The translations under genes were made by a program, and so were the position numbers. From positions 1-64,000 of IMG/VR virus record IMGVR_UViG_3300028384_001071: a stretch of DNA of 64,000 nucleotides; one strand, given 5' to 3'. Of the stretch, positions 6,593 to 45,400 are shown one piece after another. The notes beneath the pieces were generated by a model. That model searched no databases. It saw only the letters and a list, made by a program, of their open reading frames with translations, and was not told the DNA's origin. Origin of the DNA: a virus. How positions within the stretch are numbered: the stretch's first letter is position 1; every line of letters begins with the position of its first letter.

Positions 6593-6845
6593 GATCTGGT
6601 CAGTTCGGATATGGTTTCATACAGGTGAATCGGTGGTCATCTGCATGAGGGACGAAGGGTCGGCGGAAGCCGCTCGTGATGAGTGGGAAGAAGCATTCAA
6701 CGACTTCTCAGAAGAAAGTGAGACACCCCTCAAGGTTGAAGGGTTCTGTGACACCGCAGATCGAGCACCATTACGGCTATCGTACCTGCCTAGCAGTGCA
6801 CGTTCCGTAGGTGTCTGCCGAATGTACGGAGAAGCTAAGTCATGA
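6585..6845 (+). CDS. Hypothetical protein
   Basis: Acidic ORF coupled to neighbours. Confidence 0.5.
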   Translation: MGEIWSVRIWFHTGESVVICMRDEGSAEAARDEWEEAFNDFSEESETPLKVEGFCDTADRAPLRLSYLPSSARSVGVCRMYGEAKS

Positions 6846-7579
6846 AACGGAGATCATTTCTAAAGTCGATGACAGCCGGTGCTGCGGCACTAATCTTGCC
6901 ATCGACTGTCCAAGGACGGGCAAAGGTATCTCTTCCACGAGTCTATGGCTTGAAGGGATACCCACCTTTAGGCGAGGTACACCAGTTGTATCTTGTCAAC
7001 AGTGTGTCCCGGCTGCATCGATATTACGGTGCACCTGCGGGTAATTGGGTAGCACTCAATAAGAAGAACCCAATGCGGTGGCGTGATCTTGGTAAGAACA
7101 TCAAGATCAGACCGCTCCACGCTAATCCGATAGCAGCAGAATACGGGTCCAATGGTTCCCTATTCTGCTTTGATGTTGAACATCCCAAGTTCAATGAAGT
7201 GGTACAGCAATCTGACTCCCCTGATGGTCGTCTCAAGTACGGTTATGGCGGTGTGATGTATTGCGAGTTTGAAGGCAACGTAGTAGCACTACCTTGTTTG
7301 AACAAGAGCAAGCGTCGGGTGATGACTGAGATCCATAGGGATCGAGGCATCAGCCCTGACGCTGAGCAAGTCGTACTCGGATCGAAACACATGACGATCG
7401 AGCGTAAGCCTGAAATCCAGTGGTATGCACCTATCCTACAGGATGGTGAGTCTTTCGAGGTCAACGAACTACCACTCCCTCAATACAACGACATGTTCGA
7501 AGGAGTCCTGAAACGTGAGCCGAATCGCCTTGCTCTTACTGCTAGCCGTACCGCTTCAAGAAACGAAGTATCTAAATGA
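6842..7579 (+). CDS. Twin-arginine signal-bearing protein
   Basis: MKRRSFLKSMTAGAAALILP matches the RRxFLK Tat consensus. Confidence 0.65.
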   Translation: MKRRSFLKSMTAGAAALILPSTVQGRAKVSLPRVYGLKGYPPLGEVHQLYLVNSVSRLHRYYGAPAGNWVALNKKNPMRWRDLGKNIKIRPLHANPIAAEYGSNGSLFCFDVEHPKFNEVVQQSDSPDGRLKYGYGGVMYCEFEGNVVALPCLNKSKRRVMTEIHRDRGISPDAEQVVLGSKHMTIERKPEIQWYAPILQDGESFEVNELPLPQYNDMFEGVLKREPNRLALTASRTASRNEVSK

Positions 7580-11090: not shown

Positions 11091-11561
11091 ATGCGTAGAA
11101 GAGCATTCTTGAAGTCGATGGCAGCCGCAGTTGTGGTTACCACGACTCCAATCGTACTGACGCGTTCAAAAGACGTGACACTGGAAGGTGTCCGAATCAA
11201 ACCGTTCTACACAAATCACCAGTGGCGTGGGATGCAGACGCGTCTTTACGAACTTGCAGAACGTGTACCGGACCATTGGCATTATCCAAAGCAGCGAGAC
11301 ATCGCACTCACTAGCACAAATAACTCGCTCGCTGGGCACTCTCTCGGTAACACAAACAATCCCCTCCACCCTTACATTCAAAAGTATGGGTATTATGAGA
11401 TGGACTGGCAGCAACAACGTTCACCTGAAGTAATCGAGTACATAACACTCGAACGACTCCTCGCATGTGTCTGTGTCCTACCGACTGCTGAGACCATCTC
11501 AACGAAACGACTCATTGAGAGTCACGGGCTGGTGGGGATTAGAAAGCGAATCGATGGATAA
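11091..11561 (+). CDS. Twin-arginine signal-bearing protein
   Basis: MRRRAFLKSMAAAVVV. Confidence 0.6.
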   Translation: MRRRAFLKSMAAAVVVTTTPIVLTRSKDVTLEGVRIKPFYTNHQWRGMQTRLYELAERVPDHWHYPKQRDIALTSTNNSLAGHSLGNTNNPLHPYIQKYGYYEMDWQQQRSPEVIEYITLERLLACVCVLPTAETISTKRLIESHGLVGIRKRIDG

Positions 11562-24636: not shown

Positions 24637-24778
24637 ACGGTGGCTGGGCGTATTCCGATGTGGCAAGAATCTGTGCAATTATTTCTGAGACTTAGTCTAG
24701 TATACTATAGAGGGAGTAGTGGAGTCACCCACCTGGGCGAACCCGATGTGGATTCCGTACAGCCATCGAGAGGTCAAT

Positions 24779-26233
24779 ATGAGAAACATCGTCTTTGTTG
24801 CGGCATTCCTGATAGGATTTCCCAACGCAGTATTAGCACAGAATTTCATCTGCCCAGATGCAGAAGTAAGACAAGCCGCAGAGCAGTACCGGAAAACACT
24901 AGCCGTAAAGTGGCTAGGTAAGGAACTCCCTCAATGGTCGAGACCGTGCCCCATCCGGGTGATCCCCGCCCAGAAATCTGAAGGATCTACAAGATACACC
25001 ATCGGAAAGCGTCCCACTGGTAACGTCGTTTACGGATGGGATATGACAATCCGAGGCAGTCGGAAGCGGATGTTGGACTCGGTACTCCCTCACGAAGTGT
25101 TACACACAGTTTTGGCATCTCATTTCGCGGAGAAGCTACCACGCTGGTTCGATGAAGGTGCAGCCAGCACTGAGGAGCATCCAGAAGAGATCGCCAAGTT
25201 GAAGCGTAATCTTTTAAGTTACGCCAACAACAGGCAACTGATTCTGTTCAAGAACATCATCGGTGAACTTGAATACCGCAAAGACGCCGGACCGACGTAT
25301 GCTCAAGGGCGTGGAATGGTCCAGTTTTTGATCCATCACAAGTGTCATCGGGTTGTAGTCGATTTCATCGACACCGGACTGGAAGACGGATGGCCATTGG
25401 CTTTACGACAGCACTATGGCTACGAGTCAGTCCAGCAGTTTCAAAACCGATGGTCGTCGTGGTATCGGGCAGGTGAACCTATCCCACGTGAATCTGGTAA
25501 GCCTCAGCAATGGGACTGCACTGGGACTGGATGTCGAATTCCACGAGGACTACCTTGCGACGGCCGCTCATACATCTGGGACGGTCGTCGATGGCGTCCA
25601 CTGGATGTGCAATCACTACAACCACCTCCGACACAACAGCAGTGGACACCTTCGACTCAGCAACCGCCGATTCAGATGGAAGACTGGCCAGCACCGGCAC
25701 AACAGCCTCCGGTGCAGCAACCATCCGGATGCAACTGCAACATGGAAGCACTCATCAAGGAGATCCGGGAACTCCGGAAGCTCCTTGAATCGAAACAAGA
25801 CAACACCGCAGTTCTTCGGAAACTGAATCAAGCCACCACGATCCTTGCAGCACTGGAAGGCCGCAAGACTCAGCTTGACCTAACCCCTTTGACTGAGGCA
25901 TTGAAACATAACGCTGGCTTGTTGGTGGAGATTCAACGCTCCATCGCAAGTCAGCCACCGGCCAATGATAACTCGGATCTCAAAGAGTACCTAAGTCAAC
26001 ACACTCAGTTACTCACACAGATCACCCGCTCACTCGATGCACTGAGTCAGCGGGACAATTCCGATGTCATTGCCCGTATCGAAGCACAGAATCGTCTCAC
26101 ATTGAAATCAATTGAGACGAACAACACGAAGCTTCTTGGCCGACTATCCCAACTGGGAAGCCACCGGTGTTCCGAAGAGAGTCACCAAATGGCTTCTGAC
26201 TTATCCACTCTCTTCAATTTGATAGAGGAATGA
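24779..26233 (+). CDS. Secreted gluzincin (peptidase MA-like) with Pro/Gln linker and coiled-coil tail
   Basis: Signal peptide MRNIVFVAAFLIGFPNAVLA; LPHEVLH...PRWFDEGAA; GAGGT RBS. Confidence 0.8.
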   Translation: MRNIVFVAAFLIGFPNAVLAQNFICPDAEVRQAAEQYRKTLAVKWLGKELPQWSRPCPIRVIPAQKSEGSTRYTIGKRPTGNVVYGWDMTIRGSRKRMLDSVLPHEVLHTVLASHFAEKLPRWFDEGAASTEEHPEEIAKLKRNLLSYANNRQLILFKNIIGELEYRKDAGPTYAQGRGMVQFLIHHKCHRVVVDFIDTGLEDGWPLALRQHYGYESVQQFQNRWSSWYRAGEPIPRESGKPQQWDCTGTGCRIPRGLPCDGRSYIWDGRRWRPLDVQSLQPPPTQQQWTPSTQQPPIQMEDWPAPAQQPPVQQPSGCNCNMEALIKEIRELRKLLESKQDNTAVLRKLNQATTILAALEGRKTQLDLTPLTEALKHNAGLLVEIQRSIASQPPANDNSDLKEYLSQHTQLLTQITRSLDALSQRDNSDVIARIEAQNRLTLKSIETNNTKLLGRLSQLGSHRCSEESHQMASDLSTLFNLIEE

Positions 26234-26237
26234 CACA

Positions 26238-26513
26238 ATGCGTTTTGCTGTTGCAACCCCTGTAGCTACAAGCTATGATTCTGCGGCCCGTCTGGAAGAA
26301 ATCGGCAACTTGTCGGTCCAACAGGCTGTTGAGAACGCTGGCCGTCTGTCCGCCATGTTCGGCGTACGTGCCGCCCAAACGAACCCGATTGAGGCTCACG
26401 CCATCGGGGCTCTGAATCGATCCGCCGCTCCTGGCGACGGTCAGGCTGGTAGCCTTGCTACCGCTCTCGCTGCGATGATGATGAATATTGCCACTCGCAC
26501 GCCAACGTCCTAG
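26238..26513 (+). CDS. Ala-rich 91-aa protein, Reb-like, with capsid-type leader
   Basis: Paralog of 26557; NLSVQQAVEN...NPIEA. Confidence 0.7.
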   Translation: MRFAVATPVATSYDSAARLEEIGNLSVQQAVENAGRLSAMFGVRAAQTNPIEAHAIGALNRSAAPGDGQAGSLATALAAMMMNIATRTPTS

Positions 26514-26556
26514 AGTCTCGATGACGAGGCTCGTATCACCCTGAAGGAGTGATACT

Positions 26557-26832
26557 ATGAAGTTTGCAATCGCTACCTCGTTTGCGTCCAGCTTCGATGC
26601 CGCGACCCGCCTGGAAGAAATCGGCAACCTGTCGATCCAGAACGCGACTGAGAACGCTGGCCGTCTGTCAGCAATGATGGGTGTCCGAGCGGCACAAACG
26701 AATCCAATTGAAGCACACTCCATCGGCACTTTGAACCGCTCTGCGTCAGCCGGTGACGGTCAGGCTTCAGCACTCACAGCTGCACTTTCAGCTATGATGA
26801 TGAACACAGCTAACCGTACTCCTACGGCATAG
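26557..26832 (+). CDS. Ala-rich 91-aa protein, Reb-like, with capsid-type leader
   Basis: Paralog of 26238; AAGGAG RBS. Confidence 0.7.
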   Translation: MKFAIATSFASSFDAATRLEEIGNLSIQNATENAGRLSAMMGVRAAQTNPIEAHSIGTLNRSASAGDGQASALTAALSAMMMNTANRTPTA

Positions 26833-26836
26833 TTGA

Positions 26837-27532
26837 ATGACTGAACTGTCTTTGCAAGACTTGCAATCTCTGATGACAACCAACTCAGGCGACGGCCAAG
26901 ACGTCTTGAGTTGGACCAAAGAGATGCTTCAGGCAAAGTCAGCGATGGACCAAGCCATAGGAACCTTCCACAGCGTCTCTGATAAAGAGGTCGCGTTGAA
27001 GGCTTCCTATAAGGCTATGGGGTTAGATCCTAGAGATGCACCCACCTTCGGGTGGAACATGTCCGAACGGCCACGCCAGTCGGTCACTCAAGTCATCAAT
27101 AATCCGACCCCGCCACAACCCACGGCTTCGGAGCAGCAGCCGGAACGACCTACGCCATCTGATTCGTCAGATGGCGTGGTGTCATCACCGTCTGATGTTC
27201 AAGTCGAAGCTAACAAGCCAGTTCTTGAAGAACCAGCTCGTCCGGGTATTCCTTATTGGAAATCATCACTCGTGGGGCTAGCATCTGCTGCCGCCCTGTA
27301 TTTCGGAGTTAATGCGATAAATGGTCGCGATACAACACCGGTACAACAGGACATTCAGCCAGCAGTACCCACGCAGGTCCAAGCTGCAATGCCTAATACT
27401 GGACTCCAATCCTTAATCTGCGAAGAGTTAGATTCCGATCCCGACTTGAAAGCCGAGATCCAAGCTTCGCTAAAAGAGATCGCGAACAAGATCAAGAACC
27501 ACCGTACACTACGATTGGAGGGTGGCCCATGA
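26837..27532 (+). CDS. Membrane-anchored hypothetical protein
   Basis: Central TM segment SLVGLASAAALYFGV. Confidence 0.6.
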   Translation: MTELSLQDLQSLMTTNSGDGQDVLSWTKEMLQAKSAMDQAIGTFHSVSDKEVALKASYKAMGLDPRDAPTFGWNMSERPRQSVTQVINNPTPPQPTASEQQPERPTPSDSSDGVVSSPSDVQVEANKPVLEEPARPGIPYWKSSLVGLASAAALYFGVNAINGRDTTPVQQDIQPAVPTQVQAAMPNTGLQSLICEELDSDPDLKAEIQASLKEIANKIKNHRTLRLEGGP

Positions 27533-28218
27533 AACATCTAATCCGACAGTTGTTGTTGGACTTTCTCCGAACTCCGGGTCAACCCGGCCCAATATATGTA
27601 ATGAACAGAGGAGCAAACGGTACCATGCTACGATATTCAGTCCTCTTCCCACCAGTTGTGGATCGAGACACAGTCAGCCGTAAATTCACGTACTCTTACG
27701 TGAGTGACGAAGATGAGACGGTATCAGAAACCGTCGACATTCCGAAAGATCAACCTGATCTCCATTTCGATGTCCCTGAGCAAGTCGAGGTAACACTCGA
27801 ACTTCGCAACGTGGACAACGCGGGTAACCTCTCGACACCAGCCGTGTCAGTCTTTACCTCGCAGGATACTATCCCACCCGCCCAACCGGGCGACATGCGA
27901 GTTACACTCGTGGACGAAGTATTTTCCGATGGTGACAACGAAGGGGGTGATCAGGAATCTGATACTGGAGCGGATGATCCAGTTGGTGACGGTGATGGAA
28001 CATCGGAAGGCGACGACACAGTCGAAGGCGACGACGACGATGAAGTCGTAGTTGACGAAGGCGACGACACAGTCGAAGGCGACGACACAGTCGTAGCTGA
28101 TGAAGGCGACGACACAGTCGTAGCTGATGAAGGCGACGACACAGTCGTAGCCGACGGAGGCGACGATGAAGTCGAAAGCGACGATGAAGTCGAAGGTAAC
28201 GGCACTACCATCAGCTAA
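27529..28218 (+). CDS. FN3/Ig-like protein with acidic repeat tail
   Basis: VDNAGNLS...DTIPPAQPG; EGDDTVVAD repeats. Confidence 0.6.
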   Translation: MKHLIRQLLLDFLRTPGQPGPIYVMNRGANGTMLRYSVLFPPVVDRDTVSRKFTYSYVSDEDETVSETVDIPKDQPDLHFDVPEQVEVTLELRNVDNAGNLSTPAVSVFTSQDTIPPAQPGDMRVTLVDEVFSDGDNEGGDQESDTGADDPVGDGDGTSEGDDTVEGDDDDEVVVDEGDDTVEGDDTVVADEGDDTVVADEGDDTVVADGGDDEVESDDEVEGNGTTIS

Positions 28219-28242
28219 TCAATAACGCAGGAGCTTGACACC

Positions 28243-28794
28243 ATGTCAGATAATAAGTTCGAGAGATGCGAACCAGATGATCCACATCGGTGTCAAGCAT
28301 CCGGCAAGCATGGGCAATGCCCCTACAAGGCAATGGAGAAGCCCGATGGTTCGGGCTACTTCAACCACTGCCCAAGACACAATGCATCCAGAGTCAAGGA
28401 ATTTGAGAGGGCAAGCATGAGAAACTACCGCCTTGGCAAATTCCAAGCCCGCGTCGAGGAATTCGCCGATAATGATCAGGTGAAGTCACTCCGCGAGGAA
28501 GTAGGCATCACGCGAATGATGCTCGAAGAGACAGTGAATCAGTGTCAATCAAATACTGACTTCGTACTTGCATCTAACAAGATTAGCGATCTCGTAATGA
28601 AGATCGAGAAGCTTGTTGCAAGCTGTCACAAATTGGAACAATCAACGGGCTTCCTTTTGGACAAGGCATCAATCACACGCCTTGCTGACTCAATCATCGA
28701 GATCGTTTCTGAACGCGTCGACGAAGACGTGGCCCGAGACGTCGCAATGGCAATCATGGCTGAAATAGTCGGTGCCGATAACTCGGAGGAATAA
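28243..28794 (+). CDS. Probable terminase small subunit
   Basis: Cys/His N-terminus, SLREEVGITR helix, position upstream of TerL. Confidence 0.6.
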   Translation: MSDNKFERCEPDDPHRCQASGKHGQCPYKAMEKPDGSGYFNHCPRHNASRVKEFERASMRNYRLGKFQARVEEFADNDQVKSLREEVGITRMMLEETVNQCQSNTDFVLASNKISDLVMKIEKLVASCHKLEQSTGFLLDKASITRLADSIIEIVSERVDEDVARDVAMAIMAEIVGADNSEE

Positions 28795-28796
28795 GT

Positions 28797-29075
28797 ATGA
28801 TTCATCGTACAAGCGCAGCAGGCGAGGACATTAAGGTCATTCTCAATAATGGCCGAATGAATGATGTCGACTTCATCTATGTCAGCTTTGACTCCGCACC
28901 AAGCAATGCTGAGATTCGAATCAGTGAGGGTGATGATATCGTGTTCAGTGTTGATGTAAGACAGGTCGGCATCATCCCGATTGACCTGACGAAGTATTCG
29001 ACTCAGGAAGATGTGACGATCGAGGTTCTGAACTCTTCCGGCGTCGTCGCGAAGTTGAACGTCGTTACTCAGTAA
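28797..29075 (+). CDS. Hypothetical virion-associated protein
   Basis: GGAGG RBS; beta-rich. Confidence 0.55.
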   Translation: MIHRTSAAGEDIKVILNNGRMNDVDFIYVSFDSAPSNAEIRISEGDDIVFSVDVRQVGIIPIDLTKYSTQEDVTIEVLNSSGVVAKLNVVTQ

Positions 29076-30754
29076 TGGATCTGAAGAAGCTCTTCGCTGA
29101 GCGTATAGCAAACGGACTACAACGAGCGTCGATTACGTCGCCGTCGTTGTGGGCAGAGATGTACCGTGTCATGGGTGGTAAGTCATTCCCCGGAAAGTGG
29201 GGATTCAAATACCACCCGTGGTTACGGGATATGCATGACTCCACAGCCCAATTGAATTGCGGCCAGAAAGCCGCACAGATGGGTTATACAGAATGTATGT
29301 TGAATCTGGTGTTCTTCCATATGGACATCAACTCGACAGACTGCTTGTATGTTCTACCGTCGAAGACTCCCGACGCGACTGACTTCTCTGCCTCTCGATT
29401 CGATGCAGCGTTGGACCTCAGTCTACATCTGGAGAGAATGTTCTCCGATGTTAAGAACGTTGGCCACAAGAGAGCGGGAGCCGCTAACTTGTACATTCGT
29501 GGTGCTAACTCAAAGGCAGGTTTGAGATCAATCCCTGTTGGATTCATGGTCATCGACGAGATGTCCATTATGAATCAAGACAATGTGGCACTGGCACTCG
29601 AACGTGTTAGTGGTCAGTTGGAGAAGCAGGTGTGGATGATATCCACTCCAACCATCGACGACGAGAACATCAACAAGGAATTCAACAAATCAACTCAAGA
29701 GCATTTCTTCTTCAAATGTCCGAGATGCAGTCAATACGAGGAACTGACTTTTCCTGACTCGATCAAGATCATCGGTGAAGACCCGACTGATCCCCGACTA
29801 GGTGAATCACATCTGATCTGTAAGAATACTGGATTAGAACTCCCTCACATCGTATCCGACGATCCAAGAAAGAATGCCGACGCAAAGGCTGAGTGGTTGA
29901 GCGGTGCCATCTGGACTCCCTCTCACCCTGACCGTGACATGCGTGGATTCCTAATCCCGCAACTTTATTCAGTGACCGTTAAACCGGGTGATATCGCACT
30001 TTCTTACCTCAAAGGCCTGACAGATCCGGCCGACGAACAGGAATTCTTCAATTCGAAGTTAGGCGTAACACATGCCGTTGAAGGGTCACGAGTAACAGAC
30101 AAGGAAATAGCGGATGCCAAAGGTAGCCACTCTCGCAAGGACAAGATACCCCGCAACGCCATAACAACGATGGGCGTTGATGTAGGTAACAAGTGCAACT
30201 ATGAGATCTGCCAATGGTTCTTTCCGAAGGACTTTCGACCTGAACGCCCCTCGACCGCGAGGTGTAAGGTTCTCCGATTCGGAACAATTGAAGAAATGGG
30301 CATGTTGAATAAGTTCATGGCCCAATACAACATTGCGCATTGTATCATTGACTCTCAACCTGAACGCCGTGCCGCGATCGCCTTTGCATCGAGATGGCAT
30401 GGCCGTGTGAACTTGTGCTTCTATGCCAAAGGCATTAGTGGCAAGTCGATCAACGTCCCGAAAGATCATGCCGACTATCTGATCACAGTCGATAGAACAA
30501 GCTGGCTCGATGTGTCACTTGGACGGTTCCGTGACGGGACCATCAAGATACCTATCGATGTCGATTTCGAATATCGTGAGCAGATTAAGGCACCGCAACG
30601 TGTCTACTCGAAAGACAAGAACGGTAATCCTGTAGGTACTTACGAGAGTGGTTCGAAACCGGACCACTATGCTCATTCCCGTAACTACGCAGAGATCGCG
30701 ATGGCCTTTGTTTGTAATCGTGGTCGCTCTCAGAGCATGACTGGAGTATTGTAA
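29075..30754 (+). CDS. terL: Terminase large subunit (lambda GpA-like)
   Basis: QKAAQMGYTE Walker A, MVIDE Walker B, ISTPT, CPRC, MGVDVG nuclease, DHYAH. Confidence 0.9.
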   Translation: MDLKKLFAERIANGLQRASITSPSLWAEMYRVMGGKSFPGKWGFKYHPWLRDMHDSTAQLNCGQKAAQMGYTECMLNLVFFHMDINSTDCLYVLPSKTPDATDFSASRFDAALDLSLHLERMFSDVKNVGHKRAGAANLYIRGANSKAGLRSIPVGFMVIDEMSIMNQDNVALALERVSGQLEKQVWMISTPTIDDENINKEFNKSTQEHFFFKCPRCSQYEELTFPDSIKIIGEDPTDPRLGESHLICKNTGLELPHIVSDDPRKNADAKAEWLSGAIWTPSHPDRDMRGFLIPQLYSVTVKPGDIALSYLKGLTDPADEQEFFNSKLGVTHAVEGSRVTDKEIADAKGSHSRKDKIPRNAITTMGVDVGNKCNYEICQWFFPKDFRPERPSTARCKVLRFGTIEEMGMLNKFMAQYNIAHCIIDSQPERRAAIAFASRWHGRVNLCFYAKGISGKSINVPKDHADYLITVDRTSWLDVSLGRFRDGTIKIPIDVDFEYREQIKAPQRVYSKDKNGNPVGTYESGSKPDHYAHSRNYAEIAMAFVCNRGRSQSMTGVL

Positions 30755-32532
30755 TGCCAAAGACAACATTAACAGTCGATTCTCTGACGCATCCAGATTA
30801 TCTTGCCCGATTGAACGACTGGCAGAAATGGCGATACACCTACGAGGGTGGTCGCCCTTTCATCGACAAGTACCTGAAGCGATTCTCAAATCGAGAAGAT
30901 TATCAGGATTGGCTCGATCGCAAGTCTATCACATACTGCCCCGCATTCGCGAAGGCAGGGATCAATGAAGTCAATGACTCAATCTACCAGCGAATGGTGG
31001 ACATCACCCGAGTAGGTGGAAGTCAGGCTTACAACAACGCCATGCTCGGTCTTGAGAACGGGGTCGATCTACAAGGCAACTCGATGAACAGCTTCATCGG
31101 TCAGGAAGTCTTGCCTGAAATGCTGATGATGGGTAAGGTCGGCGTCTACGTTGACATGCCTGTACTACAAGGTCAGAGTCTTGCACACACTAAGGGTAAG
31201 CGTCCATACATTTACCTGTACAAGATCGAAGACATCCGAAACTGGGTTCTGGACGACAAGTCAGAAGATCAGTTCCAATCCATACTGCTCCGAGATCACT
31301 CTTTCGTCTTCGATGAAGAGACTGGGTTTCCAATATCAATTGAAGACCGGTACCGGCACCTGTGGAAGCAGGACGGTGTAGTCTGGGTTCAGATGTATAA
31401 CTCAGTCGGCAATAAGATGGAAGACCCAGTCATACTGAACATCCCGAAGATACCATTCGTACTCTTCGAACTCAGCGACTCGTTGCTGACAGATATTGCC
31501 GATTATCAGATTGCTCTGATGAATCTGGCATCATCAGATATCGCTTTCACACTGAAAGCTAACTTCCCATTCTACGTCGAACAATACGACGCACGTGCGG
31601 AAGGGTCACCATACATCCGAGGGTTCGAAGGCGAGCCTGAGTATGATGACGATGGCAATGAAGTCAGTGCTGGTGAAGGTGAACGTGCCGATGAGGCTCA
31701 AGAGAAGTCAATCAAGGTAGGTGCTTCAACCGGACGTCGTTATCCTAAGGATCTCGATGCACCGGCATTCATTCACCCTTCATCGGAACCGATGAAGGCA
31801 TCAATGGAGAAGCAAGAGCAACTCAAGCGTGAGATCCGTCTACTCCTGAATCTTGGACTATCAAATGTGAAGACTGTAGGTATGCAGTCAGCAGAGTCCA
31901 AGAAGGAAGACAATCGAGGTCTTGAGGCTGGCCTATCGAACATCGGAATGACATTGGAGAAAGGCGAACGTGAAATCGCCCACATCTGGTCGATGTACGA
32001 AGGTAACAAGACACCTGGCACTGTGAAGTATCCGGTCAACTACTCACTACGTAGTGAGGATGATCGGCGAGCAGAAGCCAAGGATCTCGAATCTCTGATG
32101 TCATCGATTCCTTCAGGTACATACCAGGAAGAGATCGGTAAGCAGATCACACGAGTCATGCTCGGACACTACGTCAGTCCAGAAACACTGGCCAAGATCG
32201 ATGACGAGATCATGGCAGCACCTAACATGGTTGCTGATCCTGCAATCGTCGCTCAAGATGTTGAGAACGGATTAGTCTGCCCCGAGACAGCTTCGATGTT
32301 ACGAGGCTATCCAGAGGACGAGGCTAAGAAGGCTGAGGAAGCACATGCGAAACGACTGGCTCGTATCGCGGCCGCTCAGAGTAACGTACCGACCGATGCC
32401 GTAGACGGTGCACGGGGCGTTCCCGATGCAGACGGCGATCCAAAGAAAACAGGTAAAGTTGAGAAAGAAGAGAGTCGAGACACTGACCAAGACGATGTTG
32501 TTTCTGACAAAACAAGGGGAGAAGGTAAATGA
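30754..32532 (+). CDS. Portal protein
   Basis: HPDY...W..WR..YEGG N-terminus, 592 aa, immediately after TerL. Confidence 0.85.
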   Translation: MPKTTLTVDSLTHPDYLARLNDWQKWRYTYEGGRPFIDKYLKRFSNREDYQDWLDRKSITYCPAFAKAGINEVNDSIYQRMVDITRVGGSQAYNNAMLGLENGVDLQGNSMNSFIGQEVLPEMLMMGKVGVYVDMPVLQGQSLAHTKGKRPYIYLYKIEDIRNWVLDDKSEDQFQSILLRDHSFVFDEETGFPISIEDRYRHLWKQDGVVWVQMYNSVGNKMEDPVILNIPKIPFVLFELSDSLLTDIADYQIALMNLASSDIAFTLKANFPFYVEQYDARAEGSPYIRGFEGEPEYDDDGNEVSAGEGERADEAQEKSIKVGASTGRRYPKDLDAPAFIHPSSEPMKASMEKQEQLKREIRLLLNLGLSNVKTVGMQSAESKKEDNRGLEAGLSNIGMTLEKGEREIAHIWSMYEGNKTPGTVKYPVNYSLRSEDDRRAEAKDLESLMSSIPSGTYQEEIGKQITRVMLGHYVSPETLAKIDDEIMAAPNMVADPAIVAQDVENGLVCPETASMLRGYPEDEAKKAEEAHAKRLARIAAAQSNVPTDAVDGARGVPDADGDPKKTGKVEKEESRDTDQDDVVSDKTRGEGK

Positions 32533-33104
32533 TCTCTGATCTAATTCTGCAACTAGATCTACAAGATCTTGCAGACGCCGGTAAGTATGATGAAGTTGCC
32601 GAAGCATTAAATGCGAAGACTATCGATGTGCGTGACAACAAGAGTTGGACGTTGTCTGAACTCGGCTCAGAATGCGGGGTCCGACTAGGTAGCGTCATGC
32701 AAGGTTACTTGGCACGTCGACTAGTCTCTGATTCGTTGCAAGGTGCGATCGAAGCTAAAGTAACAGGTTATTCTGAGTTGATCATGGCTCAGCATGCCCT
32801 TGCTACAAAAGGTCTTGATCTCAGCCCTCCCGATGTTCAAACGACACTCGATCAACTTGGTGAGACTTGGCCTGAAGCTATCCTTGACGTTGTGAAATCA
32901 CTGGGAGTCTCAACAATAAGTCCGGCAACACAAGCCGGCATCGAGGCAACAGAGATCACCGTCAAAGAAGGTTGGGAGGACTACCGCTTCCAGCAGAAAT
33001 TGACCAACGCCATAGCATTGGCCCGCAGCACAATGTCATCAGAATTATCCGATGAGGATGCGACATCAGTATGGAATGATGCGTGGATTAAAGTGAGAGG
33101 GTAA
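32529..33104 (+). CDS. Hypothetical structural-module protein
   Basis: ATGA coupling to the portal gene. Confidence 0.6.
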   Translation: MISDLILQLDLQDLADAGKYDEVAEALNAKTIDVRDNKSWTLSELGSECGVRLGSVMQGYLARRLVSDSLQGAIEAKVTGYSELIMAQHALATKGLDLSPPDVQTTLDQLGETWPEAILDVVKSLGVSTISPATQAGIEATEITVKEGWEDYRFQQKLTNAIALARSTMSSELSDEDATSVWNDAWIKVRG

Positions 33105-33107
33105 ATC

Positions 33108-33920
33108 ATGGCAGCTATTGACGACGCAATTGCAGCTTATATTGGAGCAACGCCTACCCCGGTTAATTATCCAGATAGTATTGGAGGTCAAGATGGGTCT
33201 TTTCAAGGTTTACTCTCAACCTACCCTGCACCATCTTGGGTATCAGATACTGATATAAACCGGGATGTACTGAATTTCTCTGATACGAGCAGTAGGGCGG
33301 GCAATGATATTGTCCCCGGTGTTGAGATTCTTGGACCGCCGCCCTTTGGCCATTCGGACTTCACTGTTGTGATTTGGATCAAACGATCTGCATTACAAAG
33401 TGGGAATCTCACTTTATTCTCAATGCAATATGCTGCAGGTTACAGTTCTAATGGTGTGAATTTTGAAATAGATACGGTAAGTCGACCTCGGGCTTATTTT
33501 CAAAGTAGTGTGGGTTCAGATTTACTATTCGCTTCAACACCAATTACTAGTAACACATGGGCAGCAGTAGGCCTTACATATACAAAATTAACATCTACCG
33601 CTGCCATATATGTAAACGGTACCGAAAGTGGATACTTTTCAGGGCAAGGGCCTTCTGATGTTGCCACAAATATCGGCCCAGACGCGGATGTGAGGGTGTT
33701 AACGGATGACTGGGAGCGACATCGATGGTATGTCGGGTGTGATGGGATGAACGCATCTGGATATAATGGAGGTACACAGCCTAATAATGACTCACGGCTC
33801 ATAGGTCCGGTTATATGGGACAGGGTATTAACCGGTTCTGAGCTAACTGAAATGAACACGATCCCCAGCGCTCCGTCCGCCCCAGCAAACGGATACTCTG
33901 CGTCAAGACTAGTCACTTAG
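33108..33920 (+). CDS. LamG/concanavalin-like domain virion protein
   Basis: FTVVIWIK, W.AVGLTY, IYVNG, IWDRVLT. Confidence 0.75.
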   Translation: MAAIDDAIAAYIGATPTPVNYPDSIGGQDGSFQGLLSTYPAPSWVSDTDINRDVLNFSDTSSRAGNDIVPGVEILGPPPFGHSDFTVVIWIKRSALQSGNLTLFSMQYAAGYSSNGVNFEIDTVSRPRAYFQSSVGSDLLFASTPITSNTWAAVGLTYTKLTSTAAIYVNGTESGYFSGQGPSDVATNIGPDADVRVLTDDWERHRWYVGCDGMNASGYNGGTQPNNDSRLIGPVIWDRVLTGSELTEMNTIPSAPSAPANGYSASRLVT

Positions 33921-33936
33921 GCTTGGAGAATTAAAT

Positions 33937-34386
33937 ATGAGACAAGTATTGAAAGGCACTGCCCGGAAGTTCAAGATCTACATGGCCGATGATTCTGATC
34001 CTACAGCGGGTAAGACCGGCCTAACAACATTCACAGTTTATCTCGCCAAAGACGGTACTGCCGAAGCGACCGTATCACCGACTATCGCTGAGCGAGGTCG
34101 AGGATGGTATGAAGTAACCCCTGCAACATCCCACCGGGATACTGAAGGTTACAATGCTTGGACCTTTGTAGCGTCAGGGGCCAAAGATGCCTTGTGGCTT
34201 GAAGAAGTTATCCCTGTAGATTTTCGAGATGCGGCAGGTTTGGGTCTCGCAGTTCTTCAGAACGAAGTCAGTGCCACTGACAATAGCGATGGTACTTTTG
34301 ACTTGGCATTTCGTAATGCTGCTGACGACGCCACATTACTAACAGTTCGAGTTACACCAGCAACTGGAGAGCGTGAGGTGCTGTAA
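33937..34386 (+). CDS. Virion protein
   Basis: GKTGLT...E.GRGWY motif typical of phage structural proteins. Confidence 0.6.
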   Translation: MRQVLKGTARKFKIYMADDSDPTAGKTGLTTFTVYLAKDGTAEATVSPTIAERGRGWYEVTPATSHRDTEGYNAWTFVASGAKDALWLEEVIPVDFRDAAGLGLAVLQNEVSATDNSDGTFDLAFRNAADDATLLTVRVTPATGEREVL

Positions 34387-35120
34387 TGACTGTAGGTTAT
34401 CTTGGTATTGGACCTGAGGGAAGTGTCCCGTATTCCGGGATAGGTCCAACATCAGGCGACCCGGGCGGGAATATAACCCAAACAACAGCATCAATAACTC
34501 AGTCGGCTTCCGGTAAAGTCGATGTCCAAGGTGACATTAGTCAGACATTACCAGCCACGAATCAATCGTTAGCTGGTGAAGTCGATGTCCAAGGTGACAT
34601 TAGTCAGACATTAGCCTCGACAACTCAGTCAGCATCTAGTTCGACTGAGAGTAATGGCGACATCGCTCAAACATTATCATCTGCGACTCAATCAGCCTCA
34701 GGCAAAGCCACTTTCATATCTAGCGGTGTCATCACTCAAACAACTTCTTCTACGACTCAGCAGTTATCAGGTGGGCCTGTCGAGTCTGGGGCGATAATCC
34801 AATCCACTCTAAGTGTTACTCAAAGTGGTAATGGTCAAGTAGTTGTTCAAGGTAATATCACTGGTACAGTCGGTGATATTAGTCAAGAATTAGTTCAAGG
34901 CCGCGTGGCCACCGGCACAATAACATCGACCGTAGCCGCCACAACTCAAGACCTTCGCGAATCTGTAGTTCAAGGTAGTATTACCTCAAGTGTACCTCGA
35001 ACTCAACAATTAGCATTAGTGTTGGGTAATGTTAAGATCCCTGTGTTAACAGTCTTCGCATCAATTTTGAGTAAATCTACAACTAGAGTTTCAAAGCCCA
35101 TAATAGTCAGGGAGCGTTGA
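34386..35120 (+). CDS. Thr/Ser/Gln repeat virion protein
   Basis: G[DN]IxQT repeats, shared with 49507-53700. Confidence 0.65.
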   Translation: MTVGYLGIGPEGSVPYSGIGPTSGDPGGNITQTTASITQSASGKVDVQGDISQTLPATNQSLAGEVDVQGDISQTLASTTQSASSSTESNGDIAQTLSSATQSASGKATFISSGVITQTTSSTTQQLSGGPVESGAIIQSTLSVTQSGNGQVVVQGNITGTVGDISQELVQGRVATGTITSTVAATTQDLRESVVQGSITSSVPRTQQLALVLGNVKIPVLTVFASILSKSTTRVSKPIIVRER

Positions 35121-35121
35121 A

Positions 35122-35874
35122 ATGCTGCAAAAGCAGTCAGATGAAACCCGATCTTATATCTTAGATCTGGCAGGTATCTTACCTTCAGGTGTTACTGCTA
35201 CAAGCGTCTCAACCGCAACTGTTAACCCTTCAGGATTAACGGTAGCCAATGAGGCTGTCTTGAGCACTGAGACTGAAGGGGTGGAATCTTTGAGGGGTGT
35301 ATCTTTCGAAGCGAGTGGAGGTACCGATGGTTATGAGTATCGATTGCTCTTAACAATTACTGGATCAAATTCCATAGACTACGAAGTTATCTCACTTCTT
35401 GTTGTTTCTGATTCCTTGATAATCGATGACACTCATTACTACGGATCAGTCTGGGAAGCAAGCGAGTATCTTAGAAATGTGGCAAACACAAGTTCATGGG
35501 ATACTGCCGACAATAATGTTCAAAGATCAGCTTTGCAGCAAGCCACTCAGATGATCGACCGTTTGAACTTTAAGGGGTCAAAGAGTGTTAGCACTCAAGC
35601 TCTGCAATTCCCAAGATCAAAAGACACCGCAGTACCGAGTCAAATCAAACAAGCGACATACCACATTGCTGTGCAAATACTTGACGACATCGATGTCGAA
35701 CTTGAATATGCAGACATTAGAACAACTGAGGAATGGTATGCAAAAGTAAGAACCAAGACGGATACTACTTTTGCACAAGAACACACGTTAGCAGGCATAC
35801 CAAGTGTGCAGGCTTGGCACTTACTTAAACCGTTTCTGAGAGACGGTAGGCGACTCACAATTCTGAGAGGATAA
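35122..35874 (+). CDS. Head-tail connector-like protein (DnaT-like domain)
   Basis: ALQQAT..IDRLNFKG......QALQFPR. Confidence 0.65.
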   Translation: MLQKQSDETRSYILDLAGILPSGVTATSVSTATVNPSGLTVANEAVLSTETEGVESLRGVSFEASGGTDGYEYRLLLTITGSNSIDYEVISLLVVSDSLIIDDTHYYGSVWEASEYLRNVANTSSWDTADNNVQRSALQQATQMIDRLNFKGSKSVSTQALQFPRSKDTAVPSQIKQATYHIAVQILDDIDVELEYADIRTTEEWYAKVRTKTDTTFAQEHTLAGIPSVQAWHLLKPFLRDGRRLTILRG

Positions 35875-35876
35875 CA

Positions 35877-36290
35877 ATGCGAATTTCAAACGCAGCTGCT
35901 TTGGCGATGTGTGATGCCTTAGTAGACTTGCTTGATGCAGGTTCTGCCGCAGGCTATATCGAGATTCGAACAGGATCTCAACCGGCCACTGTTGAAACTG
36001 CAGCATCAGGCACTCTTTTGGCGACACTACCACTTAGTGATCCTGCTTTTGGATCTGCCGCCGACGATGATCCAGGTGGGACGGCGACCGCTGGCTCAAT
36101 CACCGATGACTCATCAGCAGATGCCACGGGTACTGCAGGGTGGTTCCGAGCGTACGACAGTGATGGCACTGCCATCATCGATGGTACTGCTGGAACTTCT
36201 GGAACTGACTTGATTCTCGACTCTGCGTCAATTACATCAGGTCAGACTGTTAAAATCAATTCATGGACAATCACAGTCCCTGAAGCGTAA
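35877..36290 (+). CDS. Virion structural protein
   Basis: GTLLATL.L..PAF, ADATGTAGWFR conserved phage family pattern. Confidence 0.7.
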   Translation: MRISNAAALAMCDALVDLLDAGSAAGYIEIRTGSQPATVETAASGTLLATLPLSDPAFGSAADDDPGGTATAGSITDDSSADATGTAGWFRAYDSDGTAIIDGTAGTSGTDLILDSASITSGQTVKINSWTITVPEA

Positions 36291-36375
36291 ACAACTTCAA
36301 CCTAGTCACTATGTGACGTAATCAGACGCCATCTTGCAAGCGTCATGATTTATCAAAACAGCAAGGGAGAACACG

Positions 36376-37254
36376 ATGAAGATTACTCTTATGCCTCAGT
36401 GGCAATTGGCACTTCCATTCAGCACTTTCTTCGAAGGTGAAGGTGATGGAGGTACTGGAGAAGGTGGAGGTACTGGAGAAGGTGGCGGCACCAGTGAAGG
36501 TGGCGGTACTGGCGAAGGTGGTGGCACCGGTGAGGGTGGCGGTACTGGAGAAGGTGGCGGTGAAGGTGGCGGTGAGAAGACCTTCACCCAAACAGAGTTG
36601 AACAAGATCCTCTCCCGCGAGCGTAAGGCTCAGCAAGACAAGACGAAGGCAACCATTACCGAGTTGGAAGAGCTTAGGAAGTCCAAGTCTCTGACAGAGC
36701 AGGACCGAGCGAAGCTCTCGACTCGAATCGAAACACTTCAGGATGAGTTGCTAACGAAGGAACAGTTGGCGGCCAAGGACAGGGAGAAGCTCAAGAAGCA
36801 GCACGGTGAGCAACTCGAAAAGGTGACCAGTGAGCGGGATACGTGGCAACGCCGCTTCCAGCAAGCTGAGATTCGTCGATCTATCGCAGACGCAGCATCC
36901 GACGCGGGTGCATTCTCTACTCGAGATATTCAAGCATTGCTGCAACCAAACACAACACTGCAAGAGGATCTGGACGATGACGGTGAAGCCACCGGAACGT
37001 TCACTCCCCGCGTCAAGTTCGCTGACACGGACAAGGACGGGAAGCAGATCACTCTTGACTTGACGGTAGCGGATGCTGTCAAACGTATGAAAGACCGAGT
37101 GGATGATTATGGTCACTTATTCCAGTCGACGGCCCAATCAGGGATGGGGTCAAGCGGCGGTGCCGGACGCGGGTCGGCCAAAGACGTCTCCAAGATGTCA
37201 CCCGCGGAATACCGAGAATATCGAAAGAAGCAGGGCATTGGTACCGTTCGGTAA
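36376..37254 (+). CDS. Capsid scaffolding protein
   Basis: GEGGGT repeats, KTFTQ.ELN motif, coiled coil, MSPAEYREYRK C-terminus; directly upstream of the coat gene. Confidence 0.85.
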   Translation: MKITLMPQWQLALPFSTFFEGEGDGGTGEGGGTGEGGGTSEGGGTGEGGGTGEGGGTGEGGGEGGGEKTFTQTELNKILSRERKAQQDKTKATITELEELRKSKSLTEQDRAKLSTRIETLQDELLTKEQLAAKDREKLKKQHGEQLEKVTSERDTWQRRFQQAEIRRSIADAASDAGAFSTRDIQALLQPNTTLQEDLDDDGEATGTFTPRVKFADTDKDGKQITLDLTVADAVKRMKDRVDDYGHLFQSTAQSGMGSSGGAGRGSAKDVSKMSPAEYREYRKKQGIGTVR

Positions 37255-37303
37255 CCACTATTAAGCCCATCTGAAACTCAATTCCTGAAAAGGTACAACT
37301 ACG

Positions 37304-38710
37304 ATGAAGATGATCAATCAGTACGCACTCGGTACTCCGTTTGCAACGTCCTTCGACAACGATCTCGATGCACTGGTCCCAGAACACTGGGCACAGGAAT
37401 CGCTCGCAATTCTTGAAGAGAACATGGTCGTGGGTATGCTCGTACACCGCGACTTCGAAAATGAGATCGCCTCTTTCGGTGATACAGTTAACACTCGCAA
37501 ACCGGGTGAGTTCAAGGGTAAGCGAAAAGGCGTCAATGACGATGTCACCGTACAGGACGCTACCAGCACGAACATTCCTGTCAAACTGGATCAGCACGTT
37601 CACACGTCCTTCCTGATCCGTGACGGTGAAGAGTCGAAGTCCTTCAAGAGCCTGATCGAAGAGTACCTCGGCCCTGCGATGATCGCACAGGCTCGATTCG
37701 TCGATCAAGTCGTTCTCGGCCAGTTCCCGCAGTTCTTCGCGAACAGCTACGGTGGTCTCGGAACAATCAGCGAAGATAATGCCAAGGATCGCATCTTGGG
37801 TATTCGCAACGTCATGAACCAGACCAAGGCCCACACCAGTGGTCGCAACTTGATCTGGTCGCCAGACGGCGAAACGGCAGCTTTGGGTGCGGAACTGTTC
37901 ATCAGTGCTGAGAAGCGTGGTGACGAAGGTACTGCACTCCGAGAAGCCAGTCTCGGCCGCCTGTTAGGTATGGACCACTGGATGGCTCAGAACATGTCAG
38001 CGTACGCTGACGGTGACGTCGCTGCTTCCGGTGCGGTCAACAGCGCTAATGGCTATGCCAAAGGCACTACGAGCTTCGCAATCGACGGTTTCTCAACCGC
38101 AATCGGTGCGAACTCTTGGATCAAGGTTGAAGGCGATGACACCCCTCTGCGAGTTGTCACCACAGTCGGCGGTTCAACGCCAACAAGCGTGACAGTCGCT
38201 TCTCCGGGCCTCGGCAAAGCTGTGAGCGATGACGCTGTCGTCACTCACTACGGCTCTGGTGCTGTGAACCTCGCTGGCGGTTACTCTGTTGGTTACGACA
38301 AGTACATTGCTTTCGATGGCTTCACCGTGACCCCTCAGGTTGGCCAGTTTGTCACATTCGGCACTTCTGCGTCGTCTGCGGTCTACACGATCGTCGATGT
38401 CGAAGGTGCAACTCTCCTGCTGGACCGTCCGCTCGAAGCGGGTCTTGCTGACGACGATGTCGTCAACTTGGGTCCGGGTGGAAATTACAACTTCGCGTTC
38501 CATCGCAATGCAGTTGCTCTGGTCACTCGACCACTTGCTCAGCCTCGAACCGGTGCTGGTGCGTTGTCTGCCGTTGTGAACTACAACGGTCTGTCAATGC
38601 GTGCCGTCATCACGTACGACGGTAACAAGCAGGGTCACTTGGTGACGCTCGACATGTTGTGCGGTGTGAAGGTACTGGATACCGACTTGGGTGCAGTTCT
38701 TTACGGCTAA
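37304..38710 (+). CDS. Major capsid protein (P22 coat-like) with inserted domains
   Basis: PE.WA.E.L..LE, GDTVN.RKP, FHRNA.ALVTRPL, D.L.GVK.LD. Confidence 0.9.
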   Translation: MKMINQYALGTPFATSFDNDLDALVPEHWAQESLAILEENMVVGMLVHRDFENEIASFGDTVNTRKPGEFKGKRKGVNDDVTVQDATSTNIPVKLDQHVHTSFLIRDGEESKSFKSLIEEYLGPAMIAQARFVDQVVLGQFPQFFANSYGGLGTISEDNAKDRILGIRNVMNQTKAHTSGRNLIWSPDGETAALGAELFISAEKRGDEGTALREASLGRLLGMDHWMAQNMSAYADGDVAASGAVNSANGYAKGTTSFAIDGFSTAIGANSWIKVEGDDTPLRVVTTVGGSTPTSVTVASPGLGKAVSDDAVVTHYGSGAVNLAGGYSVGYDKYIAFDGFTVTPQVGQFVTFGTSASSAVYTIVDVEGATLLLDRPLEAGLADDDVVNLGPGGNYNFAFHRNAVALVTRPLAQPRTGAGALSAVVNYNGLSMRAVITYDGNKQGHLVTLDMLCGVKVLDTDLGAVLYG

Positions 38711-39990: not shown

Positions 39991-40476
39991 ATGGCACAAA
40001 TTGATTTCAAGAAAGCTACCGTCAAAATCAAAGACGGTACTACTCCGACGCCGAATGAACTTACAGTAGTCATTGGTGAAGGAAACCTGACTTACACTGA
40101 GCGAGTCAATCGTGAATACACTCTCGACCGAGGTGTCATCTACGGTGTCCGTGACGGTGATGAAGAGCCGATGGATGTCTCTCTCGAATTCCTCTGGGAA
40201 TTCCTGACTGCTTCCACGGGTGAAACTCCAACGATTGAAGACGCCTTTAAGAATCGAGGCGAAGCAAGCGCTTGGGTGACGAGCGGGGACGACCCGTGTG
40301 AGCCGTTCGCCGTGGACATTGAAGTGGTTTACACTCCAGACTGTCCCGGCGTCGAGAATGAGACAATTGTCTTGCCGGAATTCCGATACGAAGAGTTGGA
40401 GCATGACTTCGATGCCGGTTCGGTCTCTGTCTCCGGTAAGTGTAACGCCAAAGAAGCAACTGTCAGCCGGGCGTAA
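39991..40476 (+). CDS. Tail tube (major tail) protein
   Basis: Acidic, beta-rich, 161 aa, upstream of chaperone and tape measure. Confidence 0.7.
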   Translation: MAQIDFKKATVKIKDGTTPTPNELTVVIGEGNLTYTERVNREYTLDRGVIYGVRDGDEEPMDVSLEFLWEFLTASTGETPTIEDAFKNRGEASAWVTSGDDPCEPFAVDIEVVYTPDCPGVENETIVLPEFRYEELEHDFDAGSVSVSGKCNAKEATVSRA

Positions 40477-42417: not shown

Positions 42418-45400
42418 ATGACACAGAATGTGCAATTTGGAGGTAACACCGCAGGCTTGGAATCCGCATTGAAGCGGGTGAATAAGTTCTTCGATGCGAC
42501 TAACAACAAGATCAAATCTGTTAGTCGAGCATCGGTATCACTTAACAAGCGTGGCGGCGAACTCCGAACAACAATCAGTGGATTGACAGTCGATGGTCAA
42601 CGATTCACTGCGACACTTGACCGTGTCAAGACCAAAACCGGGAAGCTGACGAAGGATTGGAAGGTGATGAGAGTCGCCACCGACTCCGCCGCTGAAGGTC
42701 AGAAGCGTCTTCAAAAGGAATTGAAACGAACATCGGCTGAGGCAGCTAAAGTCAGTGCCCAGCAAGCAAAGATCAATAACAGGAAGGAAGCATCAAGATT
42801 CCTGAGAAGTAACATCACAGGTAACAGGCAATTGTTCCCTGATGGTTTTGGCTCAGGTACTACCGATGCTCAAAGGGCTAATGTCCAAGCTGCGATTGCA
42901 GCCACTGGTCGACTTATCGAACGTGGCGAGTTCACTCGGCAGCAGTTCGCACGGGTCGGCAACGACATCCGGAATAACTTGAACGCAGCGTTCACAGGTC
43001 CGGAGGCTAAGGCGGCAGCAGCCTTCCGTCGAATTGACGCAGCGATGCGGAACACTGGGACCACGGCTCAAGAGGCCGCGAAGAAGGTGATCTTGACATG
43101 GACTGGTGTAATTAGGCTGTTTGCAGTTCAAGCCTTGCACTTGGTTATCGGACGGATAATAAGCAGCTTCCGGGAAATGGTCACAACAACCGTTGACCTT
43201 TCGAAACGGATTGCGGAGATAGGGACGATCTCGCGTAACGCAAACGCAGGATTCGGGGAATGGTCAAGTGTGTTGAAGGAAGTATCCAATAACTTTGGAT
43301 TGGATCTTCTAGATGTGGCCGAGGGTGCATATCAAGCACTGTCAAACCAAGTAGCGAATGCCGCAACTGTTCAAGGCTTCTTAAACGAAGCCGCGTCATT
43401 CGGTCGAATTACAAACTCTAGTTTGACAGACTCTGTAAACCTTCTGTCGTCAGCAGTCAATGCTTATTCGTCACAAGGATTGTCAGCCGCCCGAGCATCA
43501 GAAGTCTTCTTCAAGACTATTGAACTTGGCCGTGTTCGTGCATCTGAACTAGCCAACACGTTAGGTACATTACTGCCGCTTACTTCACAGTTAGGTGTGT
43601 CGGTTGAAGAAGCCGCAGCAAGTGTTGCGACTCTGACCATTCAAGGTATCAGATCTGACACAGCGTTGACACTCATGCGTAATGTCATGCTTGGCCTTAT
43701 TAAGCCAACCGACAGCATGAAGCAGTTGATGGAAGAATGGGGTGTTAGCACTGGTGAAGCGGCGATCGCTACATTCGGATTGTCCGGAGTTCTTGAGCGA
43801 TTGAACCAAGAAGCCCTTAGCGGTGGGATTACTCGTATCGGTGAACTAGCGGGCCGTCTGCGAAACATTCAAGGTGTCATCGGTACTACCGGTAACGCCT
43901 TTGGTAAATTCAACGACAACCTTCGTGAAATTCAAGAAAATGCAGCCTCGTCATTCGACATTGCAGATCGCATAGCATCGAACTCACTGGGCAATCGACT
44001 GTCGGTACAGTTCCGGGAATTCCAGAACTTCTTCCGGACAGAACTAGGCCCTGCACTTTCGAGAAGTATCGCAGACCTTGTTGATAGGTTCGGAGGTGTT
44101 GATACAATCTTGAAGAATCTGATCGGACCATTCCAATCATTCTTCAATATCATGTCATCATTCACCGAAGTGATCACAGCAGTCATAACTCCCATCGCGG
44201 ATATGGCAAGTAGTTTAGGATTAGTCTCAGCCGGTGGAAGCCTACTCGGACCAATCTTAGCGGCACTGACTGTTCGATGGGTTACAATGCGTGCCCAAGT
44301 CGTGGCATCGTCTGCTGCGACATTGTTAGCAGCGGCAGCTAAAGGTAAGCTCGGAGTATCTGCCCGTAGACTCGGTGCAATAATCCGATTGAATCGAATC
44401 CGGTTCAAGAATCTAACAGCATCTATAAGAGCCAACGCTCAAGCGGCAACTCTTCTGAATGCTGGTAGTAGAGCTTTGAGTGTCACAACTAGACTACTCG
44501 GATCTGCCTATCAGAGGGTGACAGCCTTCTTAATCCAGAACCGGATAGCTCAAGGCGTCTCGAATTTCACTACTAAGATTGCAACCACAACTCAGAGTTT
44601 GTTCAGAACTGCCCTTCTTGCGACGACATTTCAATTAGGCATTTTCCGAGCAGCGTTACTTCAAACAAACATCGGCACGAAGCTGGTAAACGTATCCTTG
44701 AACATCGCAGCAATTGGTACGAGGTTGTTTGGTTCGAGTTCAGCGATCGCAGCCGGTGGGGTGTTAGCTCTGACAGTTGCTACACGAGCGTTGGCTATCG
44801 CAGTCAATTCGGCATTCTTCTTCCTACCATTACTGATTGGATTCTTCATTGAAGCCGGTCAAGCGGCGGAAATGGAGTTTGCTAATAAGCTCGATGTCGC
44901 AGTCGAAGAGTCTCGAAGGTTAGGTCAGGAATCCTTAAAGGAACTGAACAAGAGTCTCGATGAGAACAAAGTAGCCTTCACGGATGTGGCAGATGCAATA
45001 TCTGGTAAGTATCTGAAGGCCATCGCTGAGGTCCGTCGAGAAGCATTGAAGCTGTCAGGTGAAGAACTTAACGGAGCCTTTGATGGTTCTCTGGGTTCTA
45101 TCAATCCTGATGATCTTGCTCAAGAACTAGGATTCGACAACAAGACAGCCAAGGATGCGGCTAAGGAAGCTGTTAAGTCGATCGAAGATAGCCGCTCGAA
45201 AGTCGAGAAGCTATTGTCGTCTATCACCGAGCTGCAAGAAGGAATTGCAGATCGTGCGTTGACGACGACCGCTGATAGTATCAAAGCAGCATCTGGTAAT
45301 CTTGAAGAAGTCGCCTTCTTGCAAGGCGAGCTTGAGAAGCTACTGACTCGTTCAGATACCTTCTTCGCATCAGGCGACCTTGACTCTGCAGAGCGAACCC

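Follow-up and report, generated by a model that had tools for sequence, protein, structure and literature searches.

In phage T4, a short N-terminal peptide, the capsid targeting sequence, sends internal proteins to the prohead core, where it is cut by the S77 protease gp21. Leaders shared by the capsid and scaffolding proteins of one phage are, to our knowledge, so far known from Firmicute phages that use the L27 and Prp of their hosts. In the Staphylococcus phage 80alpha, the capsid and scaffold begin with a common leader, 13-14 residues long, which the host protease Prp cuts between Phe and Ala (PMC5744158, citing Wall et al. 2015); the scaffold leader is needed for assembly and cleavage is dispensable, and another staphylococcal phage has this motif on its major tail protein (PMC5744158). 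Here, a shared leader is described in a 64,000-nucleotide stretch of viral DNA (the window), which corresponds to the first 64 kb of the 101,564-bp IMG/VR virus record IMGVR_UViG_3300028384_001071, a genome estimated to be about 86% complete. The reading that we favour, with slightly less than even confidence, is that the scaffold, the capsid and some tail or small proteins of this phage group carry a portable leader, read by a common partner and probably removed by a 157-aa C39-like peptidase encoded by the phage itself.

The original prediction, made from the window alone, described a motif shared by the capsid, the scaffold and two 91-aa proteins (here p91a and p91b; Table 1). Its pattern has exactly four matches in the six-frame translation of the window, all of them on the + strand, at the N-termini of real open reading frames (ORFs) and 6-17 codons downstream of a stop codon; a looser pattern gave no additional matches in the same translation. 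The motif occupies residues 3-14 in both p91 proteins, residues 9-20 in the scaffold and residues 7-18 in the capsid. In a six-frame scan of the 101-kb genome with the capsid nonamer as query, the p91 proteins scored 28 and 27 and the scaffold 26, above a background whose 99.99th percentile was 20; the next best match (24) was in a non-coding frame. Since the p91 proteins are paralogous (74% identity), they count as one independent case. Most pairs of the four sites are identical at only 1-4 of 12 third codon positions, an exception being p91b and the capsid (7/12), so the sites are alike as peptides and not as a DNA or RNA element. The capsid belongs to the P22 coat protein family (PF11651, 106.9 bits against a cut-off of 24), and its canonical N-terminus follows the motif directly, as had been claimed: the phrog_283 profile begins at residue 19, and the PF11651 alignment likewise starts after the motif.

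Searches of IMG/VR with the capsid gave 428 relatives, 90 loci of which were read, and 22 related genomes were assembled, seven of them at least 97% complete. A species-genome scan found prophage copies in contigs of 0.1-6.6 Mb from Pirellulales, Thermoguttaceae and Planctomycetaceae assemblies, which identifies the host phylum as Planctomycetota, and the presence of a tape measure gene indicates a long-tailed phage. The group is a clade of uncultured Planctomycete siphophages with a P22-type coat. The leader was found on 75 of the 78 distinct capsid N-termini of related viral contigs, and its length from Met to the junction is mostly 12-15 residues. Its last residue (P1) is Tyr in 38 cases, Phe in 20 and Gly in six (6/71); P2 is usually Val and P5 is aromatic, either Trp or Phe. 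After the junction, P1' is Ala (39), Asp (15) or Glu (7), and P2' is an invariant Asn.

The capsid Met directly precedes the conserved block in the leaderless clade members L042 and L089, while L095 has a four-residue extension only. In leaderless relatives the Met aligns with residue 17 of the window capsid, the conserved block starting at residue 18, and the leader is also missing from distant isolated relatives, namely Streptomyces phage Hiyaa, Dinoroseobacter phage R5C and Vibrio phage SSP002; the leader is therefore an add-on peculiar to this clade. In the capsid, as in the tail protein described below, it directly abuts the conserved mature N-terminus with no linker. Sharing among proteins is limited to the P side, the P' side varying by protein family, and a scissile bond, if there is one, is more likely to lie before than after the Asp, Glu or Ala. 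In the closest relative (L002, IMGVR_UViG_3300034152_000094; 74% capsid identity) the capsid gene, at 1950-3010, is split: after some 35 residues it is interrupted by roughly 1 kb of inserted DNA with a LAGLIDADG-type ORF, probably a group I intron with a homing endonuclease; exon 1 retains the leader, whose last six residues are those of the scaffold leader of the same phage.

The leaders diverge widely between phages, with endings such as Trp-Tyr-Gly, Lys-Trp-Val-Gly, Leu-Thr-Tyr-Cys, Thr-Tyr-Tyr, Leu-Leu-Ala-Tyr, Pro-Val-Tyr and Pro-Val-Phe (Thr-Ser-Phe in the window), though the scaffolds of the related phages repeat the leader of their own capsid. The scaffold of the same phage was the best match of the capsid leader in 27 of 79 phages and among the top three in 37, where about one would be expected by chance, and the mean leader score was 24.6 for self pairs versus 13.6 for cross pairs. 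Within 43 capsid/scaffold pairs, identity at the first, second and third codon positions was 0.70, 0.78 and 0.46, which indicates selection on the peptide and not on DNA or RNA, and excludes recent gene conversion. In L089 both the capsid and the scaffold are leaderless, and in L042 and G037 the capsid is leaderless and the scaffold still tagged. Conservation in homologs, which had been proposed as a check of the motif, is thus borne out, the leader being kept across the clade and co-varying within each phage. Because leaders are nearly identical within a phage and very different between phages, they must, as this comparison shows, be read by one common partner that co-evolves with them.

The leader of each of the 22 genomes was used to look for additional copies in that genome. 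The probable major tail protein has it in G009, G014, G019, G020 and G021, with scores that reach the 99th percentile of cross-genome pairs or exceed it, and weaker matches were found in G018 and G028, giving 5-7 of the 22 genomes; in the remaining 15, this protein has its Met at the junction. Where the tail protein is tagged, the leader immediately precedes the residue aligned to residue 2 of untagged orthologs, including the one in the window. In the complete genome G009 the tape measure is also tagged, as is a 535-aa fibre-like protein whose adjoining paralog is untagged. Tags on tail proteins that match the leader of the same phage argue for a portable element, in place of the head-targeting signal that had been suggested; on this evidence the tag is portable and marks late, mostly self-assembling proteins of both head and tail.

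Additional small ORFs with the leader of their own phage were observed in G016 (a 109-aa ORF and a second ORF, at 41292 and 56503) and in G020 (an 81-aa hydrophobic ORF at 34541). Outside the window, a 239-aa protein encoded beside ParB (genome positions 70064-70783; L013:6064-6783) has a leader-like peptide at its start and then, like the scaffold, a stretch rich in Asp and Gly. It was considered as a fifth tagged protein and rejected, since it scored no better than chance and the homologs from G003 and G009 have no tag.

Among the core genes of the clade, one encodes a peptidase-like product, a stand-alone protein of 157 aa; the other core genes scanned encode replication enzymes. Cys12 and His119 of this protein are invariant in the alignment, and most sequences have Gln6, six residues before the Cys, and Asp-Pro at 130-131, after the His; a Gln six residues before the catalytic Cys is the spacing rule known from ComA. 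In its AlphaFold (AF2) model (pLDDT 92), the protein has a papain-like fold that is closest to C39 leader-peptidase domains: VIA-align gave Z 11.9 with PCAT1, 11.6 with leader-bound LahT150 and 11.2 with ComA, with rmsd values of 2.5-2.7 over 118-123 residues for these superpositions, and the close runners-up were PeiR (C71, Z 11.4) and staphopain (Z 10.5). Of the 22 related genomes, 20 have the gene, and the contigs of the other two end before that region; the contig of G023, a leaderless relative, stops just past the DNA polymerase gene. A profile search retrieved 1861 cluster representatives of the family, with no match among the isolated phages of the phage collection. At least 14 of the 17 large peptidase-bearing contigs retrieved carry a capsid of the same clade, so they provide no independent lineage for comparison.

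The 157-aa peptidase is the best candidate for the reader and processor of the leader, given its modelled C39 fold, its conservation and the fact that no alternative peptidase is apparent. In a partial Mantel analysis of the 22 related genomes, leader distance was correlated with peptidase distance (partial r 0.32, p 0.007), and in the same genomes leader dissimilarity showed r values from -0.09 to 0.15 with capsid, terminase, portal and tail-tube divergence. It did track peptidase divergence and that of the DNA polymerase encoded nearby (r about 0.32), a possible hint that in these mosaic genomes the leader follows the replication module. Inspection of the peptidase alignment by eye revealed no column that tracks the P1 class. 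A complex prediction for the peptidase with capsid residues 1-40 gave no answer (score 0.00) and has no weight for or against binding.

Under the favoured reading, the leader is borne by the scaffold and capsid clade-wide and, in some members, by the tail tube, the tape measure, a fibre-like protein or small proteins such as p91. The common partner, presumably the C39-fold cysteine peptidase of the phage itself, would cut between P1 and the following Ala, Asp or Glu, leaving the same N-terminus as in untagged orthologs. The peptidase would act on late, self-assembling proteins while they are in the cytoplasm and not inside the prohead, and its function would be that of a phage-encoded counterpart of the host Prp step in phage 80alpha. 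Removal is the most likely action of the partner on the leader, and a role of the leader as a maturation signal is plausible.

Several observations weigh against this assignment. Any peptide added at the N-terminus would be expected to have its junction at residue 2 of untagged orthologs, and DNA polymerase distance gives the same correlation with leader distance, so the peptidase signal is not specific. The 157-aa protein has no Pfam family at E 0.05 and is unknown to PHROGs, PF03412 (C39) has no match in nine genomes at E 1, and the ESM Atlas provided a weak C39 lead only. The C39 enzymes known so far, mostly fusions with an ABC exporter, mature small secreted peptides by cutting after Gly-Gly, whereas the leaders described here mostly have Tyr or Phe at P1 and Val at P2. 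The peptidase gene is located in the replication module, where in many relatives it overlaps the 3' end of an NYN nuclease gene, and the homolog P0031 (266 aa) is an NYN-peptidase fusion, which could point to another role. Finally, G037 retains the peptidase despite its untagged capsid, although its scaffold is still tagged. In the genome under study, the overlapping NYN nuclease and C39-like peptidase genes lie at 87683-88640 (L014:3683-4640).

Other sources of protease activity were searched. The claim that the head module lacks a recognisable prohead protease holds: Pfam and PHROG scans found none in any ORF from portal to capsid, family searches for S78, ClpP, S77 and S49 found none in 9-10 related genomes, and S77 (gp21-like, PF03420) had no match in ten genomes, of which seven are at least 97% complete. 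The gene at 59292 for a papain-like enzyme, one of the two sources of leader cleavage that had been suggested, was discarded, as its match to Peptidase_C92 is sub-threshold and no homolog was found in four related genomes. A 504-aa zinc-peptidase-like protein (24719-26233) was also rejected as the leader enzyme, since it seems to be an exported protein and three related records gave no homolog.

The alternative that survives best, though we consider it unlikely, is that the leader is never cleaved and acts as a permanent or transient docking or chaperone tag, through which all tagged proteins would dock on a single phage factor, such as an assembly chaperone or a scaffold site, and so be kept soluble or brought to where assembly takes place. 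The 80alpha scaffold leader is essential for assembly and cleavage of capsid and scaffold is dispensable (PMC5744158), the retention of the scaffold leader where the capsid has lost it (G037, L042) suggests a role of its own for the former, and a common binding partner would suffice for the co-variation, with no protease required. These points are countered by the presence of the leader on tail tube, tape measure and fibre-like proteins, which assemble apart from the scaffold, by its position directly against the conserved mature N-terminus without a linker, and by the conserved leader-peptidase-like enzyme that these phages encode.

A second alternative, which appears improbable, is that a host protease removes the leader in the manner of Prp, the leader imitating a propeptide of the Planctomycete host and the differences between phages mirroring those between hosts. 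It has the precedent of 80alpha (PMC5744158), and the hosts do differ, prophage copies being found in several Planctomycete families. However, Prp (PF04327) had no match in the phage and none over the cut-off in five Planctomycete host genomes (best E 0.08), although these are metagenome-assembled and the absence is not absolute. L27 has a canonical N-terminus with no extension in five Planctomycete genomes that carry related prophages. When two hosts were scanned with one degenerate leader pattern, the matches were the scaffold and capsid copies of the prophages plus a single match at the level of the reversed-pattern control. The mimicked host substrate that had been envisaged thus gained no support from the L27, Prp and leader-pattern tests, within the limits of one pattern and two scanned hosts, and the leaders vary far beyond what one conserved host substrate would allow. 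A third alternative is that the shared sequence acts as nucleic acid, for instance in translation initiation or regulation, or results from gene conversion. Its place at the 5' ends of highly expressed late genes and the p91b/capsid pair would fit, but the probability is close to negligible given the codon-position identities above, the location of Shine-Dalgarno sites and start codons ahead of the leaders, and the lack of a start codon at the junction in the cases listed.

The system resembles that of 80alpha in its shared capsid/scaffold leader, in the aromatic residue before the junction, in the lack of an encoded prohead protease, in the tagging of tail proteins in relatives and in processing that would be cytoplasmic. 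It differs in that the 80alpha leader copies the host L27 extension and uses the host Prp, whereas L27 of the Planctomycete hosts has no extension and Prp was not found; in addition, the leader is phage-specific and co-varying and not one conserved motif, the capsid belongs to the P22 coat family, and it is the phage that encodes the candidate enzyme, whose fold is another one. The motif is therefore distinct from that of 80alpha, as the original prediction stated. Like the T4 capsid targeting sequence, which is removed on maturation, the leader is one short N-terminal peptide on unrelated proteins of a phage; unlike it, the leader is also found on tail proteins, and no S77 protease was found in the ten genomes searched. 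As in double-glycine leader/C39 systems (PCAT1, ComA, LahT150), recognition would reside wholly in a short N-terminal leader, leaving the mature part free, and the candidate enzyme has a C39 fold in its model together with the Gln/Cys/His/Asp set. Unlike C39 enzymes, the phage protein is stand-alone and has no Pfam C39 match, and the leaders mostly end in Val-Tyr or Val-Phe.

The p91 family has 29 members in a large protein collection, of which only the closest 11 have the leader, varying in the same style as in the capsids; the structure model consists of two helices at low confidence. In the window, the p91 genes are flanked by the gene of the 504-aa zinc-peptidase-like protein, a secreted protein with a His-Glu-x-x-His site and a signal-peptide-like start, and by a membrane protein gene (26837-27532). 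The three-gene cassette of secreted peptidase with coiled-coil tail, p91 and membrane protein lies at 24719-27532, just upstream of the terminase genes. In L148 (8324-10888), an unrelated phage type that has an HK97-type protease-like gene, an untagged p91-family member has a secreted trypsin-like peptidase with a coiled-coil tail on one side and a small membrane protein on the other. Since this gene order is conserved in two unrelated phage types, the cassette may serve Planctomycete phages in lysis or in breaching the envelope. The proposal that the motif marks the 91-aa proteins as head cargo gained no support: most members of the family are leaderless, and its cassette recurs in an unrelated phage type. 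Between the membrane protein gene and a small terminase-like gene is a gene (27529-28218) for a 229-aa protein whose C-terminal half has acidic repeats, with a weak match to the RTX nonapeptide (PF00353, E 3.8e-6). In the early region, the translations of two ORFs (6842-7579 and 11091-11561) begin with twin-arginine-like signal peptides, and their products may be exported.

Table 1. Positions of the leaders, the proteins that carry them and other genes of the phage (coordinates in the window unless stated otherwise).
Feature	Position	Strand	Remarks
p91a, 91 aa, leader residues 1-13	26238-26513	+	predicted helical
p91b, leader residues 1-13	26557-26832	+	paralog of p91a
Terminase large subunit	29075-30754		
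Portal	30754-32532		
Head-tail adaptor	35122-35874		
Scaffolding protein (head), 292 aa	36376-37254	+	phrog_206, E 1.2e-16
Scaffold leader, residues 1-19	36376-36432	+	next to it a low-complexity linker rich in Gly and Glu
Major capsid protein, P22-coat family, 468 aa	37304-38710	+	PF11651 P22_CoatProtein, E 1.4e-30; phrog_283, E 3e-59
Capsid leader, residues 1-17	37304-37354	+	predicted junction Phe17/Asp18
Probable major tail protein, untagged here	39991-40476	+	between connector genes and tape measure
Tape measure	42418-46995		
Stand-alone peptidase-like protein, 157 aa	88167-88640 of the genome (outside the window)		clade core gene

Literature searches brought up neither a description of leaders of this kind from Planctomycete phages nor one of a C39-like enzyme taking part in phage assembly. 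The same leader design as in 80alpha is found here in an unrelated phage lineage and host phylum, with no ribosomal link and in dozens of natural variants, and it moves repeatedly onto tail proteins. Its recurrence without L27, together with the tagging of tail proteins, argues that the leader has a general role in virion assembly and is no mere by-product of L27 mimicry. The co-varying capsid/scaffold pairs amount to a ready specificity table for whatever reads the tag. If the reader is the C39-like protein, a large family of unannotated phage genes would gain a function, and P22-type capsids, the textbook case of proteolysis-free assembly, would include a proteolytic branch. It is possible, though rather doubtful, that the widespread family of small stand-alone C39-like proteins as a whole, with its 1861 cluster representatives, consists of phage-encoded leader peptidases that strip phage-specific, co-evolving N-terminal tags, a private assembly code of each phage, from the scaffold, the capsid, the tail tube and further late proteins. 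Such enzymes would represent a new kind of virion maturation protease, active outside the prohead.

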